Shown here in pieces: positions 1-43,600 of a stretch of 64,000 nt of DNA. This DNA is from Chiloscyllium plagiosum (lineage: Eukaryota): positions 16,018,854-16,082,853 of the forward strand of contig NC_057749.1 of assembly GCF_004010195.1 (NCBI RefSeq). Reading direction: 5' to 3'. The first letter of the stretch is position 1. Each line of letters begins with the position of its first letter. Both the position numbers and the translations under genes were made by a program. Below the pieces are notes generated by a model that saw nothing but the letters and a program-made list of their open reading frames with translations, was not told the DNA's origin and did not search any database.

Positions 1-281
1 GACCTGCAATCTTCTTCCCGACCTCTCCGCCCCCACCCCCTCTCCGGCCTATCACACTCACCTTAACCTTCTTCCACCTATCGCATTCCCAACGCCGCTC
101 CCCCAAGTCCCTCCTCCCTACCTTTTATCTTAGCCTGCTTGGCACACCCTCCTCATTACTGAAGGGCTTATGCCCGAAACGTCGATTCTCCTTCTCCTTG
201 GAGGCTGCCTGACCTGCTGCGCTTTTCCAGCAACACATGTTTAAGCTCTAATCTCCAGCATCTGCGACCTCACTTTCTCCT
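1..281 (+). mobile_element. Terminal fragment of a Penelope-like element with a degenerate hammerhead core near 159-184
   Basis: C-rich tract followed by ctgaagggcttatgcccgaaacgtcgattctcc...gctgcctgacctgctgcgcttttccagc, near-identical to 5077-5225 and 59009-59133. Confidence 0.7.
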
Positions 282-4625: not shown

Positions 4626-7600
4626 CTATTAAAAAAAAACACAAAACATGCCAAAATTACAAAAACACTAATCATCATTACGACCAAGTTGTTAAAAAAC
4701 AAACACAATTCTGGACTTTGTAAGCCAGAGTACAATCAATTCTCTGTAACATTTATAAAAACTGTGGAAAATTTTCCCAAACTCCGTAATTCAGGGACCC
4801 AAACTTCAGGATTCTATAGTAGCCCAAGACTCTAATTCTCACCTTACACTACTGCCTTTTATGAGTCAGTCCTTTGGATCAAAGGAGATGACACAATTTG
4901 ATGACTAAATGACCTTTCATAGGTAGATCAGAGTAGAAACATTGAAGGTAGCAAGCAATCATTTTTAAAATGAACCTGACAGCTGATTTATGAAGCTTAA
5001 AAATGTGTTGTTGGAAAAGCACAGCAGGTCAGGCAGCATCAATGAGGAGGGTGTGCCAAGCAGGCTAAAATAAAAGGCTTGGCACACCCTCCTCATTCCT
5101 GAAGAAGGGCTTATGCCCGAAACGTCGATTCTCCTTCTCCTTTGACGCTACCTGACCTGCTGCACTTTTCCAGCAACACATTTTTAAGCTCTGATCCCCA
5201 GCATCTGCAGTCCTCACTTTCTCCTAGCTGATTTATGAAATCTACTCTGTAATCTGTGGTTCAAATGCTTAAAGTTGTTAAGATGACAAGTTAAAGATTA
5301 AGAAATGCGCAGGTATACTGTGGCAACAATAACATTTCATAGCTTTCAGTGTGAGTCTATTAGATCCAGTCATTTTGCTGCACCAGTGCAATACAACTGA
5401 AGCTCTTGACTGCTGTTCAGGACAGTATATTAAAAATGGTTCCAATTACACATAGCACTCAAAAAATGCTTTCTTTCTTTGTAGTACTGTCAAAGATTTC
5501 AAGCTGAAACCACTCACTAACCTGAACATTGGTGAACAAATAACCAAAGAACCGTGGATGCTGGAAATCGAAAACAAAAATGTGTATTGCTGGAAAAAAC
5601 TCAGCAGGTCTGGAAACATCTGCGGAGAGAAAGCAGAGTTAATATTTCGGGTCCATTGATGCTTCTTCAGAATGGGTCAGTTCCGAAGAAGGATCACTGA
5701 ACCCAAAACTTTAAATCTGCTTTCTTTACACAGATGCTGCCAGACTTGCTGAGTTTTTCCAACCATTTCTGTTTTTGTTACTGGTAAACAAATATTCATT
5801 TCAGGCACTTTGTTTATTCAATATAAAACCTGAACGTTTTCTCCCTCTGCTGTATTAATTTGAAAGAAATATATTATCTACTTTCCTTGCAGCTACTGTT
5901 ACTTTTTAAATACCAAAATATGCCAACACCACTAGGATTGGTGAAGCAATAACCAGACATATGTACAAAGCATCGAAAGGCTCTCTTCTGAGATTTACAA
6001 TTCTAAAGTATTGCATGTCCAATAAAATCATTTCTGAAGTGTAACCATGATTGTTACTCAGTCAAATTAATCAGTCTATCAGTAAACACAACAAAATTTG
6101 GTCAGTTTCAAAAAGTAGTTAGCCTTGGTCCACATGGGTCTTTCAGCATTTCTACTCACTAGAGTCAAATTAGTATTAGATCTTATTGTCATGTGCATTC
6201 AAGTAAAGGATGCAGTGAAATGTGTACAAAGTCACCAACTTAGGTACAAACGTACAAAATTAGGTACAAAATCAAATAATAAGAAATACAGTGAAAAGTT
6301 CAACACTACAGTCCTTGTATAGCAATGGGCCTACATTTGTTCCCACTGTGCTGGGCTGAGTCCTTCACTGCCAACCACCATCTGGGCTTGTCAATTGTCT
6401 TTGTCACTGAATTGCCAACGCAGCTATAGCAGCAAAAAGGCAGAGACCAGAAAGACTGTTATGTGATGAATCAACTTGTTTTAGCTCATTCATGGCATAT
6501 GGGGCATTGAAGTTGGTCTTTGCTCAGCTGGAAGGAGAATGGGGAGGCTGGTGGGTGGATTATGGTGGTGGTGGTTGGAAAATCAGCTATGGTCCCTACA
6601 AGTATTCAGAGCGGGCAAACACAGAAATGAATGTTAGTTTGGGTTCTGTCTGAAAACTACTTTTGCAGTTGAATCACCTTCGGATGGTTACTGTCTAAAG
6701 GTGATCACTTGAGAAAAGTGGGAGAATGATAACTGGAAGAATGCACCCCTGTAGGAAATAGTTGAGAAATTTTTTAAAAATGATCTCAAAGTTGAAAAGC
6801 AAAGTGTTTTTACAAAAATAGAGTGAAAACTCCTCCAGTTCACTTCGTTACACATAGGTGCTGTTGGGACTAGCAATCCAGAGGCCCAAACTAACTCGCT
6901 GGGGACCTGGTTTCAAATTCTATCATGGCAGCTGGTGGAACTTAAATTCAATACAGAATTCTGGAATATTAAGCGACATTATAACTGCCATCTATGGTCA
7001 TTAAACCCTATCTGGATGCTAGGTTTGGTGTCGGCCATGCTTCGCCAGCCTGGCCTACATGCAATTCCAGACCTACAAGCGATGTGGTTGCCTGTTAATG
7101 GTCATATTCCTGATGAATGGCTTTTGCCCGAAACGTTGATTTCGAAGCTCCTTGGATGCTGCCTGAACTGCTGTGCTCTTCCAGCACCACTAATCCAGAA
7201 TCTGGTTTCCAGCATCTGCAGTCATTGTTTTTACCTCTATTATGTAGAACATGTAGAGCCACACAGTTCAAGGGTAATTAGAGATGGGCAACAAATACTG
7301 GCCTTGCCAGCAAGATCCGTAAAGTATTAAAGAATAAAGTCTACAGCACTGAATACGTTGGAAAAGGGGATATTTATGAAGACTGTACCTTATTGTTATC
7401 CTCATACAACATGATAACAATTTGAGTCATGTAGTTCAGTTCCGAGACTGCTCCAAGGTAGTCCATGGCTCTCTTCCACTGTTGATCCTTTAGATCCTGA
7501 GAATGAGAGAAATAATTGCATGAATTCTAATTAGAAATCATTGAATAAAACTCAGTGATAGCTTTAGAGCAGGATGAGGGGTGCTAGAGTAGCTCATCAG

Positions 7601-10600
7601 GCGGAGGAAGTAGGCAAAAGCAAATGCAATTAGGGACTCATTGGTTGGGGGGGTGGAATTAAGCAGAATATTCTTTCTCACAAATGTTGCATAGTCAAGG
7701 AATAACTGAGTCAGTGAAAGTAAAATATGTACTTACACCCAAGAGGCCCCCATAACGAAACAAACTCAGTAAAGAATGGACGTGACTTTCACTCGTGAAA
7801 TATAACCGTGTTCGAACGTGACGGCCAGGAGACATCACTCCTCTGGAATAGCTAAACAACAGAGCAACATGCTAATCAGGTAAATTGGTAACAAAGATTT
7901 GCATTTGTATAGCACCTTTCACAACCTCAGGACACTCCAACATGTTTTAAGGATATTTGATGTTAGGGCAGACAGACAAACAGGAAAAGGAACAGGGATT
8001 CTGCTAATAATATGAAGTGAAATCAGTACATTAGGAAGGGAGGATCTCAGACCGAAAGAACAATCTGTTTGGGTGGAGCTAGGAAACAGCCTGGGGCAGC
8101 AGTTGGAGCTATTTATAGCTCATCAAATATTAAAATTAATGTGGTGCATGGTATTAATCAAGCGGTAAGGGAAGTATGTAACATGGACAACACAGTTATC
8201 ATTGATGACTTCAACTTCATATAGACTGGATAAAACAATTGAGAATTACAACTACAAAGGACAAATTTCTACAGTATGTTAGGGTTAGTTTTCTAGAGTA
8301 GTACATTGAGGAGTCAACTTGAGGACAGGTAATTTAAAACCTAGTATTGTGTAGTGAAAAAAAGAGCTAATTCATATAGTTGCTGTCAAAGAGCGTTTAG
8401 GGATGAATCACAATATGATAGTAATTGACATGATTTTTGAAAATGACATGGTTCAATCTGAAGCAAGAGCGTTAAGTCTAAAAAAGGGGAAATAAAAAAG
8501 GTGTGAAGTACAAATTGGCTGAGATTTATTGGGGAAAATATATGAAAAGGCATGACTGACTATACATAGGCAATGAATAACCTTTAAAGAATTATTACAT
8601 TGCTTACAGAAATTATACTTACCTTCAAAAGCTCAATAAAGGTCAGTCAACTGTGGCTGCCAAAAGAAGTTAAAGACTGTACAATACTAAAGGCTTATTA
8701 TAAAGAATGGGATACACAGACACGCAAAATAATGAACAATCCAGTACTGTCATCATGGATTTGTGAATAGAAAATAGTATTTGATGAACTTCAAGTCTTT
8801 TGAAGACATTAATAATAAAATTGATAGAGTGAGTTAAAGCATGAAGGTTGCTTAGATTTTCACAAGACTTTTGATAAGGTTCTTTCCAGGAGGCAGCACA
8901 ATGGCTCAGTGGTGAGCACTGCTGCCTCACAGCACCGCTGCCTCACAGCACCGGAGGCCTCTGGTGACTGTCTGTGTGGAGTTTGCACATTCTCTGTGTC
9001 TGAGTGGGTTTCCTCCAGGTGCTCCTGTTTCTTCCCACAGTCCAAAGATGTGCAGGTTAGGTGAATTGGCCATGCTAAATTGTCCATAGTGTTCAGGGAT
9101 GTGCAGGTTAGGTGCATTAGTCCAAAGTAAATATATGGTAGGGGAATGGGTCTGGTTGGGTTACTCTTCGGAGGGGTTCGGTGTGGACTTGTTGGGCTGA
9201 AGATCCTGTTTCCACACGGTAGGGATTCTAATTCAGGAGGTTGGTTAGCAAAATTACAGCACATGGAATAGGAGATAATGTATTGCCTTGAAGGAAGGAT
9301 TGGCTAACAGGCAGGAATAAATGGGTCATTCTTGCATTGGTAAATTGACTAGTAGGGTGCCACAAGGATCAGAACGGGAATACATGTTCTGAGGAAGGTG
9401 TAAAGTGACTTCAGGAGTATTTGGACAGGTTTAGTGAAGGGCCAAGGAAGCGGAGGTTTATCCACTTTAATAAAAGGAACAGATTGCAGAGTATTTCTTA
9501 AATGGTCAGAAGTTGAAAAGTACAGATGTCCAAAGGGACCTGGTGGTCTTGTCAATAAGTTACTGAAGGCTAATATGTAGGTGTAGGCGTAGCTATTAGG
9601 AAAGCTAATGAAATGATGGCTTTTACTGCAAGAGGCTCGAGAACAATGAGTTCTGAATCCTTGTTTCAATTGTATTTAAGCTTGGTTAGACCTGTGCAGT
9701 TCTGGAGTACTGTGTGCAGTTCTAGTCTCCTTATCTCAGGAAAGATATATTGCCATTGATAGAGGGCAATGAATGTTCAACAGACCTGCTTCCATGATGG
9801 TGGGTTTGTTGTTATGGAAGAAGATTGACCAAATTGGCCCTAGCATTTTGAAGGATGAAAGTTGATCTTAGAGAAAGCTATAAATGCTTAAAGTGATAGG
9901 CTGGGCAGATGAAGGTATGGCATCCCCTCCCCCACCCCCACAATCTAAATATTAAATCCCTTGTTCTAAAAAAAAAGGGATGCCATTAGGACCAGAATTT
10001 TTTTTTTGTTCAGAAGTTCTGAATCTTTGGAATTATCTAATCTAGATGGTTGTGGAAGCTCAGTCTTTGATAGATTTTTGATTAACAATGGTGTGAAGGG
10101 TTATGGGGATACTGTGGATAAAAGGCAACAATGTTTTCAATTAGCCATAACTGTATTAAATAGCAGAGCAGATGGGTGGAATGTCAACTTCTGTTCTTAT
10201 GTACTTCACAAAAACACCCTGACTATTCCTAATAAATCCATGCCTCTCCCAATCCTCTCTCTCAATATTAATACTAAACACTTGATTAATACTGAGGTCA
10301 GACTGACTGGCCTATAAACATTTGGCCTCTCTCTCTTAAACCTTTACGGAATAATGGTGCAACATTTGCTGACCTTCTGCCCTCTGGAACCTCATTTGTA
10401 TCTAATGAGGTTTGGAAAACGATCCTCAGCATTTACCATTTCCTCCCTGCTTCCTTTAACAGTCATGGGGCCCTTGTGATTTTTTCATCTTCAAGGTCAG
10501 TCTCTTCAATACTTCTTTCTGCTTATACTCAGTTTATATACTATTTCACACACTTCTTTAACAAGAATATCTGCAGCATTCTCCTCCTTTGTGAAGAATT

Positions 10601-13600: not shown

Positions 13601-16600
13601 CATCGATAGTCACAGGTGAGCTGCCGGAAGACTGGAGGTTGGCAAACGTGGTGCCACGGTTTAAGAAAGGCGGTAAAGACAAGCCAGGGAACTATAGACC
13701 GGTGAGCCTGACCTTGGTGGTGAGCAATTTGTTGGAGGGAATCCTGAGGGACAGGATGTACATGTATTTGGAAAGGCAAGGACTGATTCGGGATAGTCAA
13801 CATGGTTTTGTGCGTGGGAAATCATGTCTCATGAAATTGTTTGAGCTTTTTGAAGAAGTAACAAAGAAGATTGATGTTAGATCTCATGGAATAAAGGGAG
13901 AACTAGCCATTTGGATACAGAACTGACTCAAAGATAGAAGACAGAGGGTGGTGGTGGAGGGTTGTTTTTCAGACTGGAGGCCTGTGACCAGTGGAGTGCC
14001 ACAAGGATCGGTGCTGGATTCACTACTTTTCATCATTTATATAAATGATTTGGATATGAACATAGGAGGTATAGTTAATAAGTTTGCAGATGACACCAAA
14101 ATTGGAGGTGTAGTGGACAGTGAAGAAGGTTACTTCAGATTACAATGGGGCCTTGATCAGATGGGCCAATGGGCTGAGAAATGGCAGATGCATTTTAATT
14201 TAGATAAATGCGAGGTGCTGCATTTTGGGAAAGCAAGTCTTAGCAGGACTTATACACTTAATGGTAAGGTCCTAGGGAGTGTTGCTGAACAAAGAGACCT
14301 TGGAGTGCAGGCTCATAGCTCCTTGAAAGTAGAATTGCTGGTAGATAGGATAGTGAAGGTGGTTTTGGTTATGCTTTCCTTTATTGGTCAGAGTATTGAT
14401 TATAGGAGCTGGGAGGTCATGTTGTGGCTGTACAGGACATTGGTTAGGCCACTGTTGGAATATTGCGTGCAATTCTGGTCTCCTTCCTATCAGAAAGCGG
14501 TTGTGAAACTTGAAAGGGTTCAGAAAAGATTTACAAGGATGTTGCCAGGGTTGGAGAATTTGAGCTACAGGGAGAGGTTGAATAGGCTGGGGCTGTTTTC
14601 CCTGGAGCGTCGGAGGCTGAGGGGCGACTTTATAGAGGTTTATAAAATCATGAAGGGCATGGGTACGGTAGTCATGATTTGGAGATGCTGGTGTTGGACT
14701 GGGGTGAACAAACTTAAAAAGCTCACAATACCAGGTTATGGTCCAACAGGTTTATTTGGAAGCACTAGCTTTTGGAGCACTAGCTCCTTCATCAGGTGGT
14801 TGTGGTGATAGGGTAAACAGACAAGGTCTTTTCCCCGAGGTGGAGGAATCCAGAATTCGAGGGCATAGGTTTAGGGTAAGAGGGGAAAGATATAGGAGAG
14901 ACCGAAAGGGCAATGTTTTCAAGTAGAGGGTGGTGCGTGCACGGAATGAGCTGCCAGAGGTAGTAAAGGAGGCAACATTTAAAAAGGCATCTTAATGGGT
15001 ATATGAACAGGAAGGGTTTGGAGGGATATGGGCCGGATGCTGGCAAGTGGGACTAGATTAAGTTGGGATATCTGGGTTGGTATGGACGAGTTCGACCGAA
15101 GGGCCTGTTTCAGTGCTGTACACCTCTATGACTCTAAACGCAAGCCAACTGCAGATGGATTTGGAACATTATCATCAAGTATACATGCACACTCTGGAAG
15201 AGCAAAGGCTCATATTCCCAACCACCATCTTACAGTGGATGCAGTTTGTTGACAGATTCATCTTCATGTGTCCGTTGTAGATCAAGTTGCATTTTTTTGA
15301 TCAATGGAAGGCAATATGCATAGGCAATGTCCAGCTTCTCCTCTTTGTTTATGCCATATTCCTGCACAAAACATAACAGACTTGAGTGGTTGCAGAACAT
15401 CAGCCCAATTAAATTAGACAGTCAATCAGACTTCATTTTCCCAGTACATAAGTGTCTACGCATGAAGTATCAACGGTACAAGAATAAAGGAGTCATGGTA
15501 AATAGGTCCAAGGAACTGGTTCAGCCATGGTTAAGAGTATTCCATCACAGGAAGAACATTAAAGCTACACAATGCATACAGTGTAGATTTACCATGAAAA
15601 TGCCATGATGTAAATTTCTCCTCAGAGTTTCCTAAGACTGAGACTATTCATTAAAACAGAGAAGGCCAAGACTTAATAGGAGTTTTTAAAAAGCAATAAT
15701 AAAAAGTTTAATGAAGCAATTAATAGAATATCGACTTTTTCTGACCATACAGAAAGTAACAAAGAGAGCCAAAGATGTAAAAAGGGATGCAGGGAGGAGC
15801 TTTGCAAAAAAGATATTACTCAGGGATGTTCGAACATGGGACACTTGAGGCACGAAGCACTACTCCTTCCCAAAGAAGTTCAGATAACAGAGCTACAAGG
15901 TAACAATGGGTGCAAAGGACAGTGGGATAGTATAGGATTACTCTGGCAAAGAGCTGACACAGATATGATGGACTGTGCACTGTTCAAGTAACTCTTTAAC
16001 TCATCTAATTTTATTTCAGAATTATTGTTTGTTTCTCCATAACTATCTTCATCTTGCTACAACAAATCAATCCCATATCAACAACAACCAACTACATTTA
16101 AATGCAGCAGAATAGCTCAAACATAACACAGGCGTATAACCAGAAAAAAAATGACACAGCCATACAAGGAGTTTTGATGACAGATCGCGAAAAGCTTGGT
16201 TCAGAGAGGTATGGTTTATGGAGGACCCGAAAGGAAGAAGTGGAGTGGCTAGGCTATATGAATGGTGGGCTGGTTTTGGCAAAACCATTGCTACCATCTC
16301 TCTCTCCTCCATAATATCACACAGATTCCCAGTTTTCCTTTCCTCTGTCTGTACTCCTGCGTCTCGCCTGGGATGTCATGATGACCCAGCAGAGAGGGAA
16401 ACATATAGCGTTTGGTTAAACAAAGCTGAATCAGTGCCATCATTATGGAAAGTTTTTTAAAAATGTGGAGACAAATAACATGGCAGGTAAATCAGCTTAC
16501 AAAATAGGAAGGAGAGTGAATACTTCAAAAATGATTTTGGTGACGAAGGATCTTCACCCAGATTCTTAATCCATCCTTTCCAATTATTTCCATAAATTGC

Positions 16601-19600
16601 AGCGAGAACAATGAACTGCTATCGCGAACCTCTGTGATGGGAAACGCATAAAATATTGGCACTGAGAGCAAGCTTCAGAACTTGCCACTCCCCTGCCAAG
16701 CTGTTCCCATACAGTTACAATACTGTCATCTACCAGGTATGTCTTCCACACAAAAAAAAAGGACAAATCCAACCTTGACAAATACACCCCCATCAATCTA
16801 CTCTCGATCAGCAGTGAAGTGATGGAAGGTGTCATCAACAGTGCCATCATTTGGTGTTTGCTTAACAGTAACCTGCTCACTGATGCTCAGTTTGGATTCT
16901 GACAGAGCCTCTCAGTTCCTGACCCTCATTCCAGCCTGGTTCAAACATGGACAAGAAACTATAGAAGTGAGGTGAGAGTGACAGCCCTTGACATCAAGAC
17001 CACATTTAACTGGATGTGGTATCAAGGAGCAAAATTAGAATCAAGGGGTAAACGCTTTGGTTGAAGTCATACCTGCCAGAAAGGATAATGGTTGGGTCTG
17101 TTGGAGGCCAGTCATCTCAGCTTGAGGATACCTCAGCAGGATTTCTTCATGGTAGTGTCTTAGATCCAACAACCTTCAGATATTTCATCAATGACCTTCC
17201 CCTCCAACATAAAGTCATTGCATACTATTCAATACCATTAGCGACTCCTCAGATAATGTAAGAGTCCATTTCCCAATGCAGCAAGACTTGGACAATACCC
17301 AAGCTTGGGATAACAATATCAACTCATATTTGCACAACACAAATGCCAGTAATTTATTTCAAGAATAAAAAAAGTCCAGTGTGCGGAAATGCAGCAAGAA
17401 TAGAAGCATGCGCCCACTGATGGAATTTGCTTCTCACTCCAGGTTAACAGGAAAAAAATCTTTCTACTCTTTCCTTCGCCTTCAAATCTTCAGTTTTCCT
17501 GACTTTGTTATCGTATTCAGCATGCATTTTTCCACCACGACTCACTGATATTGGCCAGGATTTCAATTTTAAAGAGTGAGACATATAACATCTGATTTGA
17601 TTATTAAAACTTGCTCGTCAGCTCACTCAAACAGATTTCAAGATCACTTCCCAAGCTTCAGCGCTGAGAATGCTGAATGGCATGGGGACAAGCAGGAAAG
17701 AGAAGGAATTTTATTCCCAGAACAATGGGAACAATAGACTGCAAAATCACATTAACTCAATCATCTTTCCTAGGAATTTTTATCTGCACAAATTAGGTTT
17801 TAAATTCACTGTCAATTAATTAATTTATTATTTTGGGAATGGGGCAGGTTGAAGGGATGAGGAGAGTGAGTGAGATTGCCTAATTTGAATGAAGCACAAA
17901 TATAACTCCATACCGTATGGCTCGATGGTGTGGTGCTGGAAAAGCACAGCAGGTCAGGCAGCATCGGAGAGGCAGGAGAATCGATGGGAATCATTTCCGA
18001 TAAAGGGCTTATGCCTGAAATGTTGATTCTCCTCCTCCTCTGATGCTGCCTGACCTGCTGTGCTTTTCCAGCACCACATTATCGATTCTGATTTCAAGCA
18101 TCTGCAGTTCTCACTCTTTCTTAAGTACATGGCTGTCTCAAAAACCTGACAAATGCAGAGCCGTTGCAACTTTCCCTGCAATATCACCACCTGGGATCAG
18201 GAAGCCAACACACATTCTCCCAATACAGGGTAGCACAAACATTTTCTGTCAGCTAGGATTCAGTCTAAAACTTACATATTGTTTCAATTAGTCTTCTTTT
18301 GCGATCACTGCACTAGAAATAAATTTAGTTAAAGGGAGGCCAGCTGCGACAGGCACGATCACTTCTCTCACTCTACAAATATATTCATGTTCTTGGAAAT
18401 AAACACAGATAGCAAGATATTGTTACCGAGGTAGCGATATCCAGATAGTAAAAGGGAAAGAGAGAGACTAACAGATACAGAGTTAGAGAGAGCCGGTGAG
18501 ACAGCAAGAGCAGATAAAGGAAGAGAGAGAGAGAGACAGAAGTAATAAAGAAAAAAGGGAATAGGAGAGAGAAAGAAAAAAGCAGGGGAAGAGACAGACA
18601 GAAAGGAGAGAGAAGAGAAAGAAACAATTAAAGTGGGCGTGAAAGACAAAGAGAGAGACAGAAAAAAAATGAGATTAGTCCATCAATGCATATGATACAT
18701 AGTTAAAAATCACACAACACCAGGTTATAGTCCAACAGGTTTAATTGGAAGCACAGTAGCTTTCCAATTAAACCTGTTAGACTATAACCTGGTGTTGTGT
18801 GATTTTTAACTTTGTACACCCCAGTCCAACACCGGCATCTCCAAATTATGATACATATAAGTAGGGACAAATATAGTCAGGGCTTGTTTTTATCTCTGGT
18901 GAAAATCATGGATTTTGTAGCATTGTGGAAATGGTGTTTGCATCTTAATTGTTAGATGTTATAGAACACTGAGGAAAATAAACAGTTTGAAACAAAACAT
19001 CAAAGAGATGTGAAGCTATTGTGAGGGCCAGAATGGAGCTCAAGCAGAAAAGACTGTACGTGTAGACAGTGCTTGCATACTAAAGCATTGTTTGTAGTGA
19101 GAAATGTCACATTGGGGAGATGTTAGGACAGTGATTTATGATCAGACAGCAAGGTGGGCCCAAACACACACAAGCTCCACTTATTTGAAATAGTGGAATA
19201 TGCCAAAACAGATGACATTTTTATTTTAAGTCAAATAAGTTCTGTTCATAGCCACATACTGATCTGTCACTACTGTGTGATGCTCAACTTGATTATTATA
19301 AACCAATTGATTTTTACAGCTGTACCAATGAAAGAATCCATAGAGCCTCATGACAGACAACTAAATGAGTTTGAATGAAAGGGAATTGACTTGGAACGTT
19401 TCCTGTTTTTTCTCCCCGATTTGATGCTGGCTGACCTGCTGAATATTTTCAGCATTTTGGGTTTTTACTTCAGACTTTTGACATCCACCATATTTTTCTT
19501 TTTGCGCTAGAGACTTGCCAGTTTAGTTAGATAGTAGTACAATCCTTCAGAACTGGGTTTAACAGAGCCAACCACATTAATTCCCTCTCTAAACTACGAT

Positions 19601-22600
19601 TGTCTTTACTTTAACATTCTTTTATCCGAGCTTGGTCCTAATAGCACATTACATTGCTCAGTGACAAATTTTATCTGATAATGTCTTGGAATGTTATGCA
19701 ACATTAAAGGAATGTTGTATCTAACATGTTGCAGGGATCTAAAGTAAATATATTAAAAGGTTTGCTTGACAATGTAATCTCAGTGATAGGAGCAAATTAC
19801 TGCAAATGCTGGATTCTGTACTGAAAACAACAAATGCTGGAGATCACAAGGAATCTGGCAGCATCAATGGAGAAAAAGAGCAGGCTAAAGTGGAGCTCTG
19901 ATGAAGAGTCATCTAGACTCGAACGTTAGCTTGCTCTCTTTCCATGGATGCTGTCTTTACTGAGATCTCCAGCATTTGTTGTTTTCAGTATAATCTGGCA
20001 ATGTTTTGAGAAAGCATTGCATAATCAGTGGTGCAGAGATGGAGTCAATGGTGAGACTGCCCAAAGAGGAACCTCTATTAATCGTTTAGCACAATGACAA
20101 GGAACTCATGTCACTACATGCAGACTCACAGGTACACATAAAAGCAGAATGTTTCCTGGTTATTCTTTCCTCAAATCCCTGTCTTCTTACCCAGTTAATT
20201 TACATTGTTACTACTTTCAGGATCTTCCTCCTTGCAGGATCTTGCTGTGCATGAAACATTGTACCAATTTAAGTACAATAGCAGTTAATGGAATTCCAAA
20301 TAATTAATTCTATGTAAAGCTCATTGAGATGTTGGAGAGGCTTGTTTAAGTGCCATAGAAATTTCATCAAACATACTGCATTTAAAAAATAAAAGGCCAG
20401 TCAGCCCAACTCTTCTGTGCTGGTGTTCCCTATCATCCCAATTCCCTCATCTCAGCCTTTCAGCCCAGCTTTCTAGCCTCTGATCTCATATACTCTTCTA
20501 CCTTCCTCTTGAAATCATCTAAGCTTTTTGCCTCAAGTATTTTCTATGGGAGCACTTCTACATTTTCATTACCCTCTGATTAAAGAAACTTCGCTACGTT
20601 TCTTTGTTGGATTCATTACTGACCATTTTGTACTTATGGCCTTCCCTTTTGAATTCTCCAAGAAACAGAAATACTTCTCTCCACATCCACCCTGTCCAAC
20701 CGTTCATCTTCTTAAAAGACCTCCATCAGTTTGAGAATGTGCATAGGGTATATGCAGGCAGGCATAGAGTCAAGTTCTGAATTTTGTGAAACAAGAGATT
20801 CAGCTGAGCATTATTCAGATTAGGTAAGAACTTACAGTTAAACAATGGGGTGCTGGAGGCAAAGGTAATGGGTTAACAAGGTGGAAAAGCATTCGTTATG
20901 TAGAGCCATCTAACAATATTGGAAGCATTCAGCATGTGAGGTCAGTTTAACCAGGGGAAAAGTATTCATTATGTGAAGCCAGTTATTCATTGTGCAATAG
21001 GATATGGCTTGATCTTTACTGTTGATACTCATTGATTGTAACAGTCACCCAATTAATATGTATGTTGCCTTATCTCAATGTTCCTCCATGTAAAATGACC
21101 ATATAGTTCATTGAGAAACTGCTGTTCCAGAGAAGACAGAGAACTCATGTCTCTGTGCACATGGACGATTGTTCTCTCTACCTCCAAGGCCAGGAATAAA
21201 GATGAAGGAGGTAAAACTATGCTGTGTCTCTGAGCGTTTTGCTTCAGCTGAGGTGGGGGAAACGGGACGACAAGGTCACCTCTTTGTCTTTAATTTTCAT
21301 TAACCAATTCAATCATTCTCATTAGCTGCAATCTCTCAGTTCAGCTATCTTCCATATAAATCTCTTTTGCACTTTCTCCAATGCTTCTGTCATTTTATAT
21401 AGTACAGAGACCAAAACAGGCATGCATGGCTAGAATCCTGTACAATAAATTCAGGACGTCTTTTTTCTGTCATTGAATGAGTTAAGCCATTCAGCTAAAG
21501 AGCAGCCAGCCTTCTGTGTGTAGCGCATGTCGAAAAGATATGCAAATATACCTCATTCAGGACAAGCTTCTTGCTCTATTTCTGTGTGTGGCGTAACAGT
21601 ATATGCAATGTAACCTTCAAATGTGCCAGGCATTGTGCTACTTTGATTCATGGAATGTTCTGATTTGATGAAAACATATTTGAATTACAAAGTTTATTTA
21701 GGATTGCCAAACGAGGCTTAAGCCAAGGGATTGGAGCTAAAATGCTGAGAGAGACTGCAGTAAAATGCACAGCTTTTAGGTTACTGCAGTTTTTGATGCC
21801 ATCTAATGGATATATGGTATAACTACAGCTTGGTACAAACATTTTAAAAAATGCACTGCTCATGTTTTAAAAAAACATGTCATTTTATTACAGCATCTCA
21901 ACGTCAATGTGTAGCTAACCTTTCTGAGCTCAAGAGTAAGTTAAATTTTAGACTATAAACTCTGGATTGAATTTTTCTTCCCTATATGCTTCAATCCGTC
22001 TCATTTTTGTTTTAACCCAGCAGAATGCGTGTGTGCGTGTGCTTTCGTTTGCGAGAGCACTCCCTCTAAGACCTATTTCATCGGTTTTCTCCTTGCTGAA
22101 AAGATCACCTCAAACATCAACTACTTCTTCACCTATAGATGCTGCCTGACTTGCTGAGTCTTTTTGTTTTTGGCAATAAGACACAGTTTGCTTTCTAAAT
22201 GGGTCTGGGAAGAGAAGGAATCAACTCTTGCACTCAGCAGTCTTTTAATTTAGGAAAACACCAGAGGTACTTAACATAGATGATTTCAGACAAAAAGATT
22301 AACACAAGTGCAGCTACTAAGACTATACACAGACAGAGGGTTTGATGATTCTGGAAAACAGAGTCATTCTATCTCACGTTGATATCTCAATACACACTTC
22401 GATCCTATTAATTTCTTACCTGAGGAATAATGATGTCTGCAAGGGCTTTGGAGAGTTTGAAGAGCTCTAAGGTGTCCTCAAGTTTCAAGGCGCTGTTGTG
22501 TTGCACATCATATTTAATACAATCATAGATATCTGGGATTTTACTTATGTCAAAGCGACCACTCTTCATCCTGAAATCTCTCTCCAGCTTTGACCAACGT

Positions 22601-25600: not shown

Positions 25601-28600
25601 TTTCGTCATTTATTTAATTGATTTGGATGTTAACATAGAAAGTACAGTTAGTAAGTTTGCAGATGACACCAAAATTGGAGGTGTAGTGGACAGCAAAGAG
25701 GGTTACCTCAGGTTACAATGGGATCTTGATCAGATGGGCCAATGGGCTGAGGAGTGGCAGATGGAGTTTAATTTAGATAAGTGTGAGCTGCTGCATTTTG
25801 GGAAAGCAAATCAGAGCAGGACATATACTCTTAATGGTAAGGTCCTAGCGAGTGTGGCTGAACAAAAATACCTTGGAGTGCAGGATCATAGCTCCTTGAA
25901 AGTGGAGTCACAGATAGATAGCAAAGTGAAGGCAGCATTTAGTATTTTTTTATTAGTCAGAGTTTTGAGTGCAGGAGTTGGGAGGTCATGTTGCGGCTTT
26001 ACAGGACATTGGTTAGGCCACTGTTGGAATATTGCGTGCAATTCTGGTCTCCTTCCTATGGAAAGAAATTGTGAAATTTGAAAGGGTTCAGAAAAGATTT
26101 ACAAGGAGGCTTTACAGGACATTGGTTAGGCCACTGTTGGAATATTGTGTGCAATTCTGGTCTCCTTCCTATCGGAAGGATGTTGTGAAACTTGAAATGT
26201 TCAGAAAAGATTTACAAGGATGTTGCCAGATTTGGAGGATTTGAATTACAGGGAGAGGCTGAATAGGCTGGGGCGGTTTTCCCTGGAAATTCGGAGGCTG
26301 AGGGGTGACCTTAGAGAGATTTATAAAATCATGAGAGGCAAGGATAGGGTAAATAGATAAGGTCTTTTCCCTGGGGTGGGGGAGTCTAGAACTAGAGGGC
26401 ATAGGTTTAGGGTGAGAGGGAAAAAATTTAAAAAAGGACTTAAGGGACAACATTTTCATTGTTTCATGCAGAGGGTGGTGTGTAAGGAACGAGCTGCCAG
26501 AGGAAGTGATGGAGACAAAAAACCGCAGGAATCCCACCTGTGCCTGCCTCTTTGTCGGCTATATCAAACAGTTCCTCGTCAGTACTTACACAAGCACTCT
26601 GCCTCAACTCTTCCACCGTTACATTGATGATTGCATCGCTGCAGCATCCTGCACCCAGGCTGAACTGGAGTAGTTCATAAACTTTGCTCACAACTTCTAC
26701 CCCATCCTCAAATTCACTTGGTCCATATCGGACACCTCCCTCCCATTTCTTGACCTCTCCATTTCCAGCTCTGGTGACAGACTCCAGATGGAAATTTATT
26801 ATAATCCCACAGACTCAACTACCTGGACGACATCTCCTCCCACCCAACTCCATCCTGGTCTCCCAATTCCTCCATCGCATCTGCTCAAAGAGATATTCCA
26901 CTCCCAAGCATCCCAGATGTCCACCTATTTTGAACAACGTGCTTTCCCCACCTCTGTCATCCACAACAACCCTCCACTGCACCACCTCCATTCCCTTTCC
27001 ACTGCTCTAAACTCCCCCCCTCCCCCTCAAACGCAATAAAGACAGCATTCCCCTTTTCCTCACCTATCAGTCTCTGGATCCAACACATTATCCTTAAACA
27101 GCTCCGCTAACTCAAACTCCACCCCACCAAGAACATCTTCCCCTCCCTACCCCTCTCCACCTTGTGCAAGGACAGTTTCCCTTGCCAATCCTTGGTTCGT
27201 GCCACTCTCCCCACCAACCCGCTGAACTCCCAGGTATCTTCCCTGCAAACAGAAAAGATGCAAAACCCCCGCCCCCCCACCCCCATCCAGGGCCACAAAC
27301 AGTCCTTCCAGGTGGTTCACCTGCCTCTCCTCCAACCTACTTTACTGTATCAGGTGCTCTTGGTGTGGCCTCTACATCGGGGAAGCCAAAACGTAAACAA
27401 AAGGAATATTTTGCCTGTCCTCCCAGTCACCGCCCATCATAATTCCCCTTTCGACTCCCTTTCTGACAATGACCATCCTTGGCCTCCTCCATTGCCACAA
27501 CAAATCAAACTGCAAACTGGAGGACCAACACCTCATCTTCCGCCTAGGTGGCCTGCAGCCCAGAGGACTCAACATTAATTAACTCCAATTTCAAATAACT
27601 TCCCTTCCCATCACCCGACTCCCTTCCCAGTCGCTCCCCATTCCATTCCTCTTATTGACCCTTCCTCTTCCAGGAACCAACCGGATTTATTCCTCCCATT
27701 GACCAACCAGGTCGTACCTTCTGTCTGTGTTCACCTAACCCCACCTCATCACCCTGCCCACCCACCCGCTTTATCTGCGGCTCCTCTTACACCCACCCCC
27801 AGTCCTGATGAAGGGTTACATCTGAAATGTTGAGTTCTTCATCTCCTGATGCTGCCTGGCTTGCAAAAGAAGTGATGGAGCTGGATAGGTATAGAATAGG
27901 AAGGGTTTGGAGAGATATGGGCCAAGTGCTGGCAAATGGGACTAGATTAGTTTAGGATATCTGGTCGGCATGGATAAGTTGGACCAAAGGGTCTATTTCC
28001 ATGCTGCACATCTCTATGACTGGAGGTGCATAGACTCAACACCCCATCCCCTGACTTATTCCTGACCTACAATGCGTCAGGGCATACAGTCCATGTCTAC
28101 TCCATTACCTTGTTGTAGTCCTCCTCTGTAAATATCTGATCCTTCTGCATGATCTCATGAAGCCTTGCTTTGACACGATGCTGACAACTGCTGAGGGAAT
28201 TGCTGTTACTGTCCAGTAGACCATTCATGTTGGCACTTTTCACCATCTGCACAAGAATTGGAGTTAGCTCACCCTCCAGTGCGAGAAGTCCCTGCAACCA
28301 AGCACACACACAGATGATTGATTAATTGATGTGGAGGGCCGTACTAGGAATAGTAACATTTCTTTACTCCATCAATTCAACTGATGGTATTAAACATCCC
28401 CTTTTTCTGGATTACAGGCATAAACCCCAAATGCATCAGTCTGATATCTCCCATAGTTCACATAAGCATGGACAGGGTGCATCATCATCTTGCTAACAAC
28501 ACCAATTTAATTTTGATATGTTTCCACTGGCCATTTCACATTTTGTTACAGTGACCCACCAGAAGCTGTCTAACCTGTTTGATGTTTATTTATTTAAACC

Positions 28601-37600: not shown

Positions 37601-40600
37601 TTATTACCATTAACAGAAATACCAACCTTTAAATGCCAAATTCTCAGATTACAGAAACAATACAGATTTCGTGTCCTGACCCCTTGGGAACCAGAGATCT
37701 TTGTCTCAAAGCAACTGTTTCTCACAAAAACACAGCAAGATCAGGAGACAAAAAAAATCTCTCTTAAATTGCACAACTCTTTTAAAAAAGTTTACTTTCC
37801 AAATGTACTGCTACCTTAAAAGGCACCTACCTTGGCCTCCAGGGTACATGCATCTAAATGCTCGTCCAAGCTCCTCTGCTTGTACCCTGCCTGCTGGAGT
37901 CAATTCCCCTCCCCATTTCAATACCAGAAGTAGTGATGGATCATTCCTCCTGGAATCTGCAAACAAATGAGCCACGGCCCTTTCAATATTATTTAATTTT
38001 CAAATGCACTGCAATATTAAAATGACTCAGTTGGTTAAAAAAGCACTATGCAAATCAGTCATTAGGTACAATTGGTCTCAGTATTCTTGGGTTGGAAGAG
38101 AAGAAAAATCATTCGGAATTCTTGCTCCAAATCGGGGTCTGGTAACCTAAGCTGCTGGAAGTTGCAATGACGTAGATTATAGCCATGGAGAGGATTGACT
38201 TAGCTATGCTATACTCAGTTGCCCGGGGTCAACAGTTTGCTGAGTCCCATTATTTTTCGGTGATGTTTGAAGAATGGCCCCTTGAATAAGAAACAATAGG
38301 TCAGTTATCACCATTCCAATCCAAGTTAAAAGATCAATGGCTAATGTTCAGACCAGTGGCAGAGAAACACAATTTAGGCTGACACTCCCAGTATGTTTCA
38401 AAGCCAATTCTGCATGCTGGAAGTGCTGTTTCTCCACTAAAACTAAAAACAAAATCACTCTCTCAAGTAAATGCACCCAACTCTAAATCCCATACCTTCC
38501 TCTTCACTTGAAGTTTTGGGTTGTCCATGAGGCAAGTATGTCATCTGAACCTTCCTGTTGATTCCAGAAAAATGACCATACCTGTAAAATACAATAATGC
38601 ATTGAAATAGTGAAAATAAAGCTCATTAATGATGGAATTCAAATTTAAAAGTAAAAAGAAACCACAGAATGCTAGAGAAACTCAGTAAATCTGGCAGCAT
38701 CTATGGAGAGGGTAACACCAGACTTAATGTTTCAAAACTGATAGAATTCTGAAGAGGAGTCATACTGGACTTGAAACGTTAACTCTCTCTGTCTCCACAG
38801 ATATTGCTAAACCTGCTCAGTTTCTCCATCATTTTCTGTGTTTATTTCAGGTTTCCAGCATCCATAGTATTTGCCTTTTCATATGAAAAATAGCAAGTGT
38901 TGAAGAGCGTAGATCAGTCAACCTCTGAGAGAGCAAGATACAGCAAAACTGTCAAAGGGTGATAACTGAGCCATGAACTTCAGCAGTATTAATGGGTGGT
39001 ATTTGTGCAGGAGGAGGAGGAGGCATGCGTCTTCTTCAGATCTCAGTAAACATCAGGAAACTTGTTCTGACCCAAAACTAGCTAAAAGAGCTAGAAGTAT
39101 TTTTAAAAAAACACAGGAACACTAAAAACATAAACATGGTTAAAGGTAAAGTTGCCATAGTCCCAGGGAACCATGAGGTTGTTTTTCATGGGAGAGAGGA
39201 GCGACTGATTTTTGTTTAACCAAAGGATCACCAAGGACTAGGCAGGGGCTGAGGTTGAGAAGGTAGGGATCTTCATGGTGACCTCAGGTGATGTGGGAAC
39301 ATCCTGATTACAATTACTTCCCCCTCAGAGCACTTACATTTCCAGCACAGTCTTTAACTGTTCTAGCTTGGATTTCTTCTCCTCTATTTCACAGTCATTA
39401 TGCTGGCCCAATTCTGCTAGAAGCTCACGGGTAATGTCTAGAACTTCCTGAGAATAAAATGCAACAACTACAATTAGATCCAAGAAATCAAAAAAATCCA
39501 AACATACCTCCAATGAGAGCAGCCTGTTGGCCCCATTATGGGAGCGTACAGTACTTGGCCCAACAAAGCCTCTCATGCCATTGAATGAAAGCGAATGAGT
39601 TTTAATAGATGTATACAATGTTATAATAGGTTCTGGTAAAGTAGATAAAAGGAACCCTGTTCTCATTAGCTGAAGTCAGGTAAAGATAAAGAGACCCAAG
39701 TCCCAGCAGACCATAGAACTGCTCGCTCATCAGAGAGAAAGAGAGAGTGACATGACTGGTAGTGATGAAGTAACCACTTGGAGGCTAATATCCTGTTACC
39801 AAGTCACGCTTTATTTACACGTGCAAAGTCCTTGATATTGGTCAGGCTTCCTGAGCCAACTCTCAGTGAACACAACCTCTGACACTCCTGTTTATATCTG
39901 TCAGCCAGGGCTCCCTGTTTGGGCCAGGTTAACTGCCCCAATCAGGGAACTCACATTCTGTGAGATCTGCCTGGCTGACCTCATGACAAATCACGACAGG
40001 TGGTTTAACCAGAAAGTCACCACATTTCAGGCGAGTGCAAGGTTGAGAAGACAGGACCTCCACAGTAACCTCAGCTGGCTGTGCTCTACGTTCCAACCAG
40101 CTGTCCAGCCAACTGAGTTAAACAACACCCTAGCTGACACAAAGACGAGGGGGCAGAGATATAAGGCAAGAGATGCTGGGGCGTATGTGAGGAAGATAAT
40201 TTTTCACAAAGGATGATAATGATTGGCAACTTGTTACTTACAAGAGTAGTGTAAGAGAAGTGGATTAATGATTTCAAAAAGAAACTGGATTGCTCCTTGA
40301 GTGGATTAAACATTCAGTGCTGCAGGGTTTGAGTCAAGGAACAAAACTGACTCCATTGCCCTACAGCAAGCCAGCATGGATCTGTTCTGTCCTTTAATAA
40401 CTATGCAATAGGTTAAAAGCACACTTTGCCATGAGAAAAAATTTGCAAACCAACATCTAACAAATTACTGTATTGACTGTCAATGATGGATAAGCTGAAG
40501 CATGAAGTGGGTGACCTTGTATTCAAATACAAGAAAGTGAGGACTGCAGATGCTGGAGATCAGAGCTGAAAAATGTGTTGCTGGAAAAGCGCAGCAGGTC

Positions 40601-43600
40601 AGGCAGCATCCAAGAAGCAGGAGAATCAACGTTTCGAAGATAAGCCCTTCTTCCTGAATTCTTCTGCTCCTTGGATGCTGCCTGACCTGCTGCGCTTTTC
40701 CAGCAACACATTTTTCTTGTATTCAAATAGCCTTACCAGAGCTTTCTACATCTGGCCTGAGCATAGACTTTCTGCAAAATCCTACACTGCACACCCCATT
40801 CCTGAGAGCTACTGGTACTTGCAGTGGCTGCACACCCCAAAAGAAACATTTGAAACTCACTGAACTACAGAATTATCTCATACCTGAAGCTGCTTTGGTT
40901 TCTTTAACTTTAGTTTGCCAGTCTTGTATCCTTCATACTTCTCAAACAAGTCAAAGAATCTGCAATAAGAAATGTTGGCATATTGAAAACAAAGGCGAAA
41001 GATGGTCAAATATGAATTTATGCCTTGCAAATATTTAGGTGAATTATCAGAATTTAAACTTATCGAAGCTACCTAATTTTGAATTTTCTCCCTATACCAA
41101 AGGAATTGGACGAAAGTTATTAAAATATTTCTTAAGATGGCTAAATGCTTACAAATAAACATGACAAATCAAAACAGCCGTCTGTTAGTGCAGAACACGA
41201 GTAACACATTTTGTTGAAGTTTTTTATCTTGACATATTGCAATGATATATGACAACTGATTGCCAGGCTTTGTCCGTATCTCAAACCCAGCTGACTAATT
41301 CCAATTCTTTAACAGAATAGGGGAGATTTGCTGGTGCATTTCTGAGGGCAATGTCCTGGCAAATCAGTCAACTTGCTCAGTTTGAAATTTAAACAAAGCC
41401 TGGCAGTTGACTGTCAGTCAGCCTTAATGCATACATTCTCCATGGGAATACCCCTACCAGAGTCCAAATGACAACCAATCAGCGCACTCTTTCCGTGCAG
41501 TAAATGTGGTTTTCTCCTTGATTAGGTACATTTTTTCAAAATGTCCTAGTGAAACAAAGTGTTTGATTTATCTGTATTCTAAAATGATTGATTTTAGAGT
41601 TTGATTTTGAGCTAGTGGCTTATTGGCTTTAACCTGTGTTTCTGAAGTAGTTCAATGACTAAGTTAATTACTTCTGTAGCCATGGTGATTTCTTGTAAAA
41701 ACAGAAGAAAGAGTTCTAGGAGAGTAGTAGGGTTTTGTTTTCATTGTGTTATGGACTAGACCAAACCCCCTTCAAATATATCAAGAAGATAATCCAGACC
41801 CTAATTTGTATTAGCGAGTTTTGAGGAGATTTGTAGCTCAGGTCGAGGTTCTGGATGTAGGTTCAACCTTCCAGCTCATAGTATGGTCACAATTGGAAGA
41901 GTTTATATAAGCAATGTAAATAATTGTGTATCAAATTTTCAGATTAAAAAGGTCATAGATGAATTTTTTCCCCCGTTTGATTAGGAGAAACACCTATAGC
42001 TTGTAAAAGGATTTGTGGTTTCAGTTTGGAAGTTTGCAGAAATCTTGGCAAAAGCTGGACTTGCCCAGTAATCCACAGGAGGGAGCTACACCAGATTTTA
42101 GAATATAATAAAGGCTTGGGTATAACAATATATGTGCTTAGATACACTTTCATTTTGCACATTCGTAAACATAAAACTTCAAGCCATTTATCTTCTAGTC
42201 TTACATTATTTTGTAATATTTATCAGATAGTTAAAAAGAAAATACTGGTTGGGTAATAATGACTTAAGTGCCTGGAGTGGCCAATACTCTTGACTCTGAG
42301 CCTGAAGGTTATAGGTTCAAGCCATGCTTCAGAGACTTTAACAGAAGTCTAGACAGACACCACAGTCTAATAGTGAGGGAGAGTCACATAGTCGTAAATG
42401 TCCTTCGGATGAGCCATTAAGCTAAGGTCTCGGCTGCCCCGAAGGCAAATAGAAAAGGTCCCAAGGCACTATTTCAAAGAAAAAGAAGGGAGATTGCCCC
42501 AGAAACCTGACTGATATATATTCCTCAATCAACATCACTTTGGGGGCACAGTGGCTTAATAGCACTGCTGCCTCACAGCACCAGGGTCCCAGGTTCGATT
42601 CCAGACTCTGGCGTCTGTCTGCGTGGAGTTTTCACATTCTTCTCTCGTCTGCGTGGGTTTCCTCTGGGTGCTCTGGTTTCCTCCCACAGTCCAAAGATAT
42701 TCAGGTCAGGTGAATTGGCTTTGGTAAATTGTCCGTATTATTAGGTGCTCTAGTCAGATGGAAATGGGTCTGGGTGGGTTACTCTTCAGAGGGTCAGTGT
42801 GGACTAGCTGGGCCGAAGGGCTTGTTTCCACACTGTAGGGAATCTAATCTAATCTAATCTAAACATTGATAACTTGGTAATTATCACATTGCTGTTTTTA
42901 CAGCTGACTTTGTGAAAATTGGCTGGCACGTTTCTTATATTCTCACACTTCAGGGGTATTTCATTGGCTGTAAAATTATTTGGGTTGAGATGCAGAAAGG
43001 TGCCGTAGAAAAACGGATCATTCTTTTACAGTAACAGCAGCACTGGAGAAATTCCCAAAAAGCAGCAAACAATGCTAAGATTTTAAAATTACATTGTCCA
43101 AGTATTTAGTTCCACACTAAATTTGCAGAGTCTAAATTCAAGATCCAAAAGGTTATGGCTAATTTGTAAACTGTTTGTAGAAAATAATTATAAATGGGTC
43201 CTGTTCTGGCCTAATGAAAAACTGACACCACTCAGTTTAGTCACTTTTGGTACATCTCTGTTTGTCTGTTCCAAGTTACAAAGGAATTGCAAAGGGAAGT
43301 ACAAAAGTAGGTAGGTACAGACCATCCTTCCAATGCTTACAATCCACCATTCACAGATTTTTGTTCTCTCCACTGGACGATGCAGAAGCCATCCCAGGCT
43401 CTGTTATTCAATGTCTGAAGTACATGCTGAACAAGACAAAGTACAAAGACAAATGCAATCTAACTGGAGCACAGACTGATACAGCCATACAGTATGGAAA
43501 CTGACCCTTCAGTCCAACTAGTCCATTCCAACCATGTTCCCAAACTAAACTAATCCCACCTGCTTGTGCTTGGCCCATATCCCTCCAAACCTTTCTTACT

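Follow-up and report, generated by a model that had tools for sequence, protein, structure and literature searches.

The insertion at 4981-5241 and its hammerhead core

We analyzed a short inserted element, and the hammerhead-ribozyme motif that it carries, in a stretch of 64,000 nucleotides (nt) from the genome of Chiloscyllium plagiosum (NC_057749.1, positions 16,018,854 to 16,082,853 of the forward strand; this whole stretch is called the window, and coordinates refer to it). The insertion occupies positions 4981-5241. It is bounded by two exact copies of the 14-bp sequence AGCTGATTTATGAA, the target-site duplication, at 4981-4994 on the left and 5228-5241 on the right, both directly outside the arms of the element, which fills the 233 bp between them (4995-5227). 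The right arm (5077-5227, plus strand) is a 151-nt 3'-terminal unit of a Penelope-like element (PLE), from its pseudo-long terminal repeat (pLTR) region, and carries the hammerhead. It ends with an extension of about 35 nt (5191-5227), here called the tail, which is found on this arm only and is delimited by the bimodal 3' ends of the copies. The left arm (4995-5076, minus strand) is an inverted, 5'-truncated copy of the same PLE 3' end, as seen when its reverse complement is aligned. With unit position 1 set at window 5077, it matches unit -15 to 21 and about 68 to 114; it begins at unit 114 and hence has no tail, and about 46 nt are missing within it, a gap that takes out the entire hammerhead. 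The insertion is made of two 5'-truncated copies of the PLE 3' non-coding end, placed head to head within one 14-bp duplication; the tail of about 35 nt closes one arm, and the other reaches no farther than the inner end point. An earlier reading of these letters, made without database searches (the sequence-only reading), had described a fold-back flanked by a target-site duplication. The two copies of AGCTGATTTATGAA bear this out, as does the predicted fold of the 233-nt RNA, a single long hairpin of -120.5 kcal/mol from which the GGGC/GCCC helix II of the motif projects as a side branch.

The motif at 5099-5126 (plus strand) reads CUGAAGA-A-GGGC-UUAU-GCCC-GAAA-CG-UC in the window, with the boxes, the stem II, and the GUC triplet exactly as first described. 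C3 to A9 correspond to 5099-5105 and are followed by an extra A at 5106. Helix II pairs GGGC (5107-5110) with GCCC (5115-5118) across the loop UUAU, G12 to A15.1 lie at 5119-5122, and after CG come U16.1 (5125) and C17 (5126). From these core positions, the predicted cut falls between 5126 and 5127. The right arm carries the minimal type-I hammerhead of its family, with CUGANGA, the extra A, a 4-bp helix II, GAAA, ACGU, and GUC. A cis-acting type-III hammerhead that uses the long hairpin arms as helices I and III was also tried, by hand, and rejected; the bases after GAAA do not pair with the left arm beside a UH site.

The motif is real and occurs more often than chance would allow. We used a strict descriptor, consisting of CUGANGA, zero or one extra nucleotide, a helix II with three or more base pairs, GAAA, a stretch from A15.1 to U16.1 that is complementary to itself, and H17. 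This kind of search had been proposed by the sequence-only reading, and it finds four distinct sites in the window (five rows), at 5099, 27805, 38749, and 59009; 200 dinucleotide-preserving shuffles of the window yielded 0.065 sites on average and never more than one. A looser pattern matched the window four times against 0.50 expected, and its match at 18969 looks like chance. A fuzzy scan with one mismatch allowed per box performed no better than its null (10 matches; null mean, 6.8), and it is therefore homology to the repeat, rather than the motif by itself, that identifies the damaged sites.

This repeat is widespread. By BLAST, the element has about nine relatives in the window, and a search of the genome (3.56 Gb in 101,977 contigs) reported 116 matches from 830 first-look candidates, the best of them 95-97% identical. 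What the copies have in common is a unit of about 150 nt that equals window 5077-5227, and many genomic copies begin exactly at unit 1. Because many copies carry further shared sequence ahead of unit 1, the unit is the end of something longer.

Minimal-hammerhead features and the host element

The strict descriptor matched 63 times in 265,748 bases (window plus genomic loci); most of the loci were chosen by their similarity to the unit, and a single family therefore weighs heavily in these counts. Of the 63 matches, 62 have a nucleotide between A9 and 10.1 (an A in 60), though the descriptor allowed none or one. The 10.1-11.1 pair is G-C in 53 matches, G-U in nine (C>T at a CpG), and A-U in one, and H17 is C in 52, U in seven, and A in four. 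Helix I had been claimed to be weak, with a mismatch. It has three pairs in the 5099-5126 copy, and the pattern pair-pair-mismatch-pair-then-open recurs in 44/63 matches. The claim that helix III is unable to close in a monomer also holds. There is no closed helix III, and in its place stands a palindrome, ACGU in the main family and AGCU in a family with GGAGC in helix II, that is able to pair between copies.

How do these features compare with known hammerheads of this kind? The sections of Cervera and De la Pena 2014 (PMC4209133) that we draw on name, as features not imposed by the search, an additional nucleotide separating A9 from 10.1, the pairing of G10.1 with C11.1, and a palindrome at 15.2-16.2 or in loop 3. 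All published marks of PLE minimal hammerheads are present here. The metazoan PLE hammerheads treated in those sections resemble ours in both boxes, the single unpaired nucleotide A9/10.1, the G10.1-C11.1 pair, the short helix I, the lack of a closed helix III, the palindromic 15.x-16.x stretch, and the location in a non-coding element end. They also occur in the same way, as paired motifs, one on each strand and a few hundred bases from one another, and as thousands of scattered singles. Helix II differs, with 4 bp here versus 7-8 bp in the Schistosoma families of that report; one family here has 7 bp. PLE minimal hammerheads are reported there from fishes, coelacanth, Xenopus, and reptiles. 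One of the two supplementary files of PMC4209133 contains neither the helix II sequence of our main family nor the word "shark."

In the approximately 266 kb examined, five or more hammerhead families can be told apart by their helix II sequences. Outside the main family, other PLE families keep both boxes with the helix II sequences GGAGC/GCUCC, GAGUC/GACUU, AGGGUC/GGCCCU, and GUUACCU/AGGUAAU (7 bp). The GGAGC family, for which we had five copies and the match table, is present in many copies, with 3004 first-look candidates in the genome.

The element that carries the unit encodes an endonuclease. We picked 30 endonuclease loci by their GIY-YIG sequence alone, without regard to the hammerhead, and in 27 of them the unit lies downstream of the endonuclease open reading frame (ORF) in the same orientation, mostly 130-140 nt after its end. 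The unit was not seen after the endonuclease in the other loci, L037, L040, and L058, the last of which has no readable sequence at the expected place. In locus L002, the ORF ends 130 nt before the unit, and its last 182 residues contain a GIY-YIG-like segment that scores 22.1 bits (E, 1.9e-4) against Pfam PF01541, just below the cut-off of 22.6. A first look with this 182-residue segment gave 159,659 candidates in the genome, and all 150 that were scored have an E value of <1e-87; PLEs appear to be a dominant repeat class in this genome. With the 400-residue ORF from locus L055, 20 database proteins of 706-1010 amino acids were retrieved (best E, 3.4e-94, with 45% identity and 95% query coverage). 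These related proteins carry a reverse transcriptase along with a GIY-YIG domain at the C terminus. One homologue, P0011, scores above the cut-offs for both RVT_1 and GIY-YIG, and another, P0001, scores above it for RVT_1 only. In the relevant passages of PMC4209133, PMC8557442, and PMC11167929, endonuclease-bearing PLEs have a single ORF that encodes a reverse transcriptase and, C-terminal to it, a GIY-YIG domain. We regard the hammerhead as PLE-borne because its host element has an ORF ending with GIY-YIG and the motif sits in the non-coding 3' end of that element. About 40 amino acids ahead of the GIY-YIG region lies a CX4CX2C motif, in a form reportedly given by Arkhipova in 2006. This motif hints at the Neptune or Nematis clade, a placement on which a passage in PMC8557442 bears.

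The form of the insertion agrees with the same host. According to the passages of PMC8557442 on the subject, PLE insertions are heavily 5' truncated, are often accompanied by an adjacent inverted 5'-truncated copy, and have a 30-40-bp tail, often at one end only. Because its fold-back with a duplication at both ends and its one-sided tail match this description, the segment at 4981-5241 has the form of a PLE insertion. The earlier claim that the core is a PLE minimal type-I hammerhead is thus upheld by its location at the 3' end of a GIY-YIG element, by the homologues with reverse transcriptase and GIY-YIG, by the published marks, and by the insertion form. We consider, with a probability of about 0.85, that 4981-5241 arose from one retrotransposition event of a PLE that bears an endonuclease and is highly abundant in the genome.

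Long inverted arms within a flanking duplication would also fit a miniature inverted-repeat transposable element of the DNA-transposon type, with terminal inverted repeats, or a twin-priming inversion of a long interspersed nuclear element, with a hammerhead-like motif that is incidental; moreover, Rfam weakly scores the hairpins as microRNA (miRNA) precursors. However, the duplications are variable in length (13-17 bp), the arms are asymmetric with a single tail and have no poly-A or simple-repeat 3' end, the unit is continuous with the reverse transcriptase/GIY-YIG ORF in those 27/30 loci, and the motif occurs about 60 times as often as chance predicts. Such an origin is very improbable.

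Conservation of the core and self-cleavage

Within 5099-5126, only N7 and two positions of loop II differ in at least 10% of the aligned reads and contigs, and in the next 28 nt after 5126 seven positions do. A table of 118 copies agrees with this read-based variation, except for CpG decay at the three CpGs of CCCGAAACGTCG (window 5119-5128). These are the fastest-decaying positions of the unit; each has changed (C>T or G>A) in 9-15 of some 113 copies. The decay has the pattern expected from cytosine methylation and is the main route by which old copies lose G12 and the ACGU palindrome. In addition, a recurrent 3-nt deletion, CCUGAAGGGC, wrecks the first box in several copies, including those at window 159, 52237, and 56900 (minus strand).

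Several results weigh against our reading of the element and its motif, and the first of them concern the host. Against GIY-YIG, the element's own copies score 22.1, 21.8, and 19.2 bits, all under the cut-off of 22.6, and one of the four own-copy ORFs has no Pfam score. The reverse transcriptase is represented in own copies by a weak RVT_1 match of 16.2 bits and is otherwise known through the homologues. A genome-wide search with PF01541 gave one match among the 150 scored candidates; PF01541 is a poor detector of these endonucleases. As for the motif, a scan with the Rfam hammerhead models, which the sequence-only reading had also proposed, did not recover it, either at the gathering threshold or at E values up to 10, on 4800-5400 (601 nt) or on the whole window. 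The core boxes and helix II are common to the motif and the Rfam hammerhead families (types I, II, and III, HH9, and HH10), yet none of these gave a match at an E value up to 10, and the scans returned only weak miRNA-like matches on the hairpins and a U6 match. The Rfam hammerhead models include a closed helix III, which is absent from the minimal motif. Among the 118 copies, the core is no more conserved than unit 68-99; for dead copies this is to be expected, and it speaks neither for nor against the motif. Of the 104 family copies that span the motif, 75 have both boxes intact, as do 33 of 42 endonuclease-anchored copies and three of eight window copies, counts that are biased upward by the choice of loci for unit similarity, the endonuclease-anchored 33/42 being less so.

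The remaining points of this kind concern cutting. An intermolecular helix III of four ACGU pairs is worth only -3.1 kcal/mol in a computed duplex. In a poly-A single-cell RNA run (X21, of which about 2% was read), 2163 reads of the family fell on both strands, and no pile of read starts or ends was seen at 5126/5127 or elsewhere, in a type of read that is poorly suited to revealing 5'-OH or cyclic-phosphate ends. The unique flanks of the 4981-5241 copy had no reads in this run. Finally, there is no excess of copies that start at the predicted cut (unit 51), with one copy starting at unit 49 and one at unit 52, of 119.

Does the core then cut? For the copy at 5099-5126, we expect little or no self-cleavage. 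No second hammerhead lies in cis, and in the predicted fold the 5' flank is locked in the long hairpin, so this copy would be inert. In an active element, the hammerhead would be situated in the pLTR of multimeric transcripts and would cut only if two copies paired via ACGU or if the element protein aided folding. Low in vitro activity is described for metazoan minimal hammerheads in the parts of PMC4209133 that deal with it, and for the Anolis element the corresponding parts of PMC11167929 describe cleavage that is assisted by protein and dispensable for insertion in vitro.

These reports also support a different role for the core. It may be kept as a site for folding, or for binding by the element protein, near the start of reverse transcription, with no cutting in vivo, an alternative that we consider somewhat unlikely. 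According to those parts of PMC11167929, hammerhead mutants of the Anolis PLE left insertion in vitro unaffected, cleavage required the protein, and the cut site coincided with no start or end of an RNA-seq read; the poor cutting of metazoan hammerheads in vitro (PMC4209133) points the same way, as do the missing read-end pile at 5126/5127 and the missing excess of copies starting at the cut in our data. On the other hand, every position of the catalytic core is kept across otherwise dissimilar families, with variation at N7, in loop II, and in the sequence of helix II, which is the pattern to be expected from a ribozyme. Moreover, fungal PLE hammerheads and the Anolis element do cleave, as the same two sources state (PMC4209133, PMC11167929), and poly-A single-cell reads are ill suited to the ends that cleavage would leave.

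Insertion mechanism, further copies in the window, and significance

The 3' ends of 119 unit copies (window and loci) fall into two groups, with 76 ends at unit 144-151 and 37 at 100-127; two lie between the groups, and four are shorter. The same sequences contain 34 head-to-head pairs, and 21 of these are flanked by an exact direct repeat of 13-17 bp. Because the exact repeat spans both arms, each of the 21 pairs represents one insertion. One arm belongs to the short 3'-end group and the other to the long group in 19/21 such pairs, the two exceptions have an even shorter arm (ending at 85 and 90), and pairs with two long or with two short arms are absent. The arms lie 0 to 5.2 kb apart, and the long pairs (L062, L063, and L066) contain ORF sequence. 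For the remaining 13 of the 34 pairs, an exact-match search found no flanking repeat of at least 12 bp. The inner ends of the arms cluster directly 5' of the hammerhead, with 22 of the 119 copies starting at unit 16-23 (window 5092-5099). Reverse transcription could tend to halt or to change template where the hammerhead is folded, or fold-backs that already have this junction could be copied. In L020 (1653-1760) and L023 (minus strand), the same sequence continues past the unit end (shared reading ...KRVTSDYNRIW...), which means either the same insertion place in another repeat or an element that extends there in some copies.

We hypothesize, from published work on other PLEs, that the element protein nicks both target strands and that reverse transcription would start at two internal RNA sites about 35 nt apart, giving inverted arms and a one-sided tail. 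The copy at 4981-5241 would then be a dead-on-arrival fragment whose core has stayed intact. One of the closest described systems is PAc, the Poseidon element of Anolis carolinensis (Frangieh et al. 2024; PMC11167929), which has an ORF with reverse transcriptase and C-terminal GIY-YIG and a pLTR hammerhead, as here. The passages on PAc describe two start sites of reverse transcription separated by the 30-40-bp tail, a spacing that the bimodal 3' ends fit, and a protein that in vitro cleaves and extends both target strands, which would yield the head-to-head arms seen here. PAc also differs from the shark element. Its ORF starts at stem II of the hammerhead, according to PMC11167929, whereas the loop II ATG opens no lasting frame here; we rejected this ATG as an ORF start, with 32 of 64 frames stopping within 10-19 codons and few extending beyond the unit. 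Furthermore, the in vitro data in that source show no strand difference in the start site, whereas 19 of our 21 insertions used one site per arm.

The fact that 19/21 duplication-bounded pairs combine an arm with a tail and an arm without one, and that no pair has two of a kind, suggests that each insertion might use both start sites of reverse transcription once, one per target strand. We put this forward tentatively, as a rather unlikely proposal. In the passages of PMC8557442 that mention it, the one-sided tail is described loosely ("often at one end").

Another source of the short fold-backs would be a self-propagating non-autonomous family, similar to short interspersed nuclear elements or retrozymes, which the PLE machinery copies from fold-back master RNAs. 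Three copies (4995-5227, L014, and L017) agree in their inner junction, where the left arm extends some 15-17 nt upstream of the unit and the right arm begins at unit 1; L004 and L018 have a 1|1 junction in common, and the clustering of inner ends at unit 16-23 would also follow from copying. Locus L008 (1164-1815; G000:C23, about 32932669-32933320) contains a tandem array of four head-to-tail units with a period of 167 bp, located after an ORF stretch; three of the four units carry a 3-nt deletion that breaks the CUGANGA box. Animal retrozymes without long terminal repeats, which Cervera and De la Pena are said to have described in 2020, reportedly have type-I hammerheads that act in dimeric form and originate from PLE pLTRs. 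The sections consulted of a preprint by Li et al. 2026 (10.64898/2026.07.22.740005) likewise present animal retrozymes with dimer-acting type-I hammerheads from PLE pLTRs, as proposed here, in an arrangement that is the one of the 167-bp array in L008, and report PLEs and PLE-derived retrozymes across vertebrate classes except birds and mammals. In contrast to these tandem retrozyme arrays, 4981-5241 is a single inverted pair. The inner junctions also vary widely (1, 7, 11, 16-23, 28-34, and 43-61), the 46-nt gap in the left arm of the window copy was absent from the other fold-backs examined, and the head-to-head form with one tail extends to the pairs of up to 5.2 kb with ORF sequence, which a short master cannot explain. 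Hence, we consider propagation from fold-back masters distinctly unlikely and retain direct retrotransposition of the PLE for 4981-5241.

Other copies in the window illustrate how such insertions decay. The sequence-only reading had listed recognizable cores at 11 further sites and had concluded that the window holds a dense population of relics. All 11 are homologous relics, and two more, at about 40630 and 56900 (both on the minus strand), lie beyond that list; most of the listed sites are damaged, and only four keep both boxes. The population is dense, with 14 hammerhead-like sites in 64 kb, and just five of the 14 have kept both boxes.

The window begins, at 1-281 (plus strand), with the 3' end of a long PLE copy; the ORF of this copy is located upstream, outside the window. 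The hammerhead of the copy (about 159-183) has the 3-nt deletion in CUGANGA. In L066, the locus of this copy, an ORF stretch at 6330-9000 reaches the window start, and the inverted partner arm is at L066 5578-5693. A fold-back of a diverged related family (5548-5763, plus strand) contains the decayed relic at 5682, CCGAAGA ... CAAAAC, with point mutations in both boxes. An older unit copy at 7106-7236 (plus strand; site 7110) reads CUGAUGA-A-UGGC-UUUU-GCCC-GAAA-CG-UU, with intact boxes and a mutated position 10.1. The relic listed at 14763 belongs to a second PLE hammerhead family (14766-14795, minus strand; GGAGC/GCUCC, AGCU) and has a G12>A change. The main family is represented again by the head-to-head fold-back at 17929-18123 (plus strand), in which the hammerhead at 17997 is decayed with point mutations in both boxes. 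At 19898-19930 (plus strand) lies a relic of a third family (GAGUC/GACUC) that has lost one A of GAAA.

The window also contains a decayed PLE ORF remnant (26524-27573, plus strand) that covers the C-terminal part of the reverse transcriptase and the endonuclease; it was found by tblastn with P0001, of which amino acids 506-660 match with an E value of 1.4e-27 and amino acids 746-883 with 2e-5. A minimal hammerhead (27805-27831, plus strand) follows 232 nt downstream of this remnant, with intact boxes and with a helix II and palindrome weakened by CpG decay. About 250 nt upstream of the remnant is a weak U6-like match (26164-26270, plus strand; 21.4 bits, E 0.69). A stronger U6 small nuclear RNA match at 55869-55974 (minus strand; 47.3 bits versus a gathering threshold of 44, E 9.6e-9) has a damaged 5' stem and is probably a retropseudogene.

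The GAGUC-family minimal hammerhead at 38749-38780 (plus strand) reads CUGAAGA-G-GAGUC-AUACUG-GACUU-GAAA-CG-UU and keeps both boxes. A head-to-head fold-back with its own 14-bp duplication lies at 40532-40715 (minus strand), and its hammerhead at about 40630 is damaged (CAGGAAGA, with helix II broken). The copy at 52186-52363 (plus strand; site 52237) has the 3-nt deletion in the first box, CCUGAAGGGC. In the old head-to-head fold-back at 56818-57035 (minus strand), the minus arm (56900) carries a 3-nt deletion and the plus arm (56950) has lost GAAA. The copy at 59008-59134 (plus strand) has both boxes, and its ACGU has become AUGU, which is still self-complementary via G-U. On the head-to-head hairpins, Rfam reports weak resemblance to miRNA precursors at 17945-18061, 40594-40690, 56872-57021, and 5037-5103; all of these matches are below threshold, for example mir-1791 with 38.1 bits versus a threshold of 75.

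In summary, the catch made from the sequence is correct and ordinary; the ribozyme type, the host element, and the insertion form are already in print, and because all three are published the finding matters little beyond annotation. For annotation, it has two consequences. Because the Rfam hammerhead models miss the motif entirely, PLE-rich genomes carry many thousands of unannotated hammerhead-like cores. PLE fold-back hairpins are likely to give false miRNA calls, perhaps also real small RNAs, and could mislead small-RNA annotation. The regularity of one tail per insertion is a genomic read-out that could constrain models of PLE integration. If each insertion does use one start site per target strand, the two halves of the dimeric ribonucleoprotein would not be equivalent, and every such insertion would serve as a preformed gene for a hairpin RNA, from which small-RNA silencing of the family could draw.

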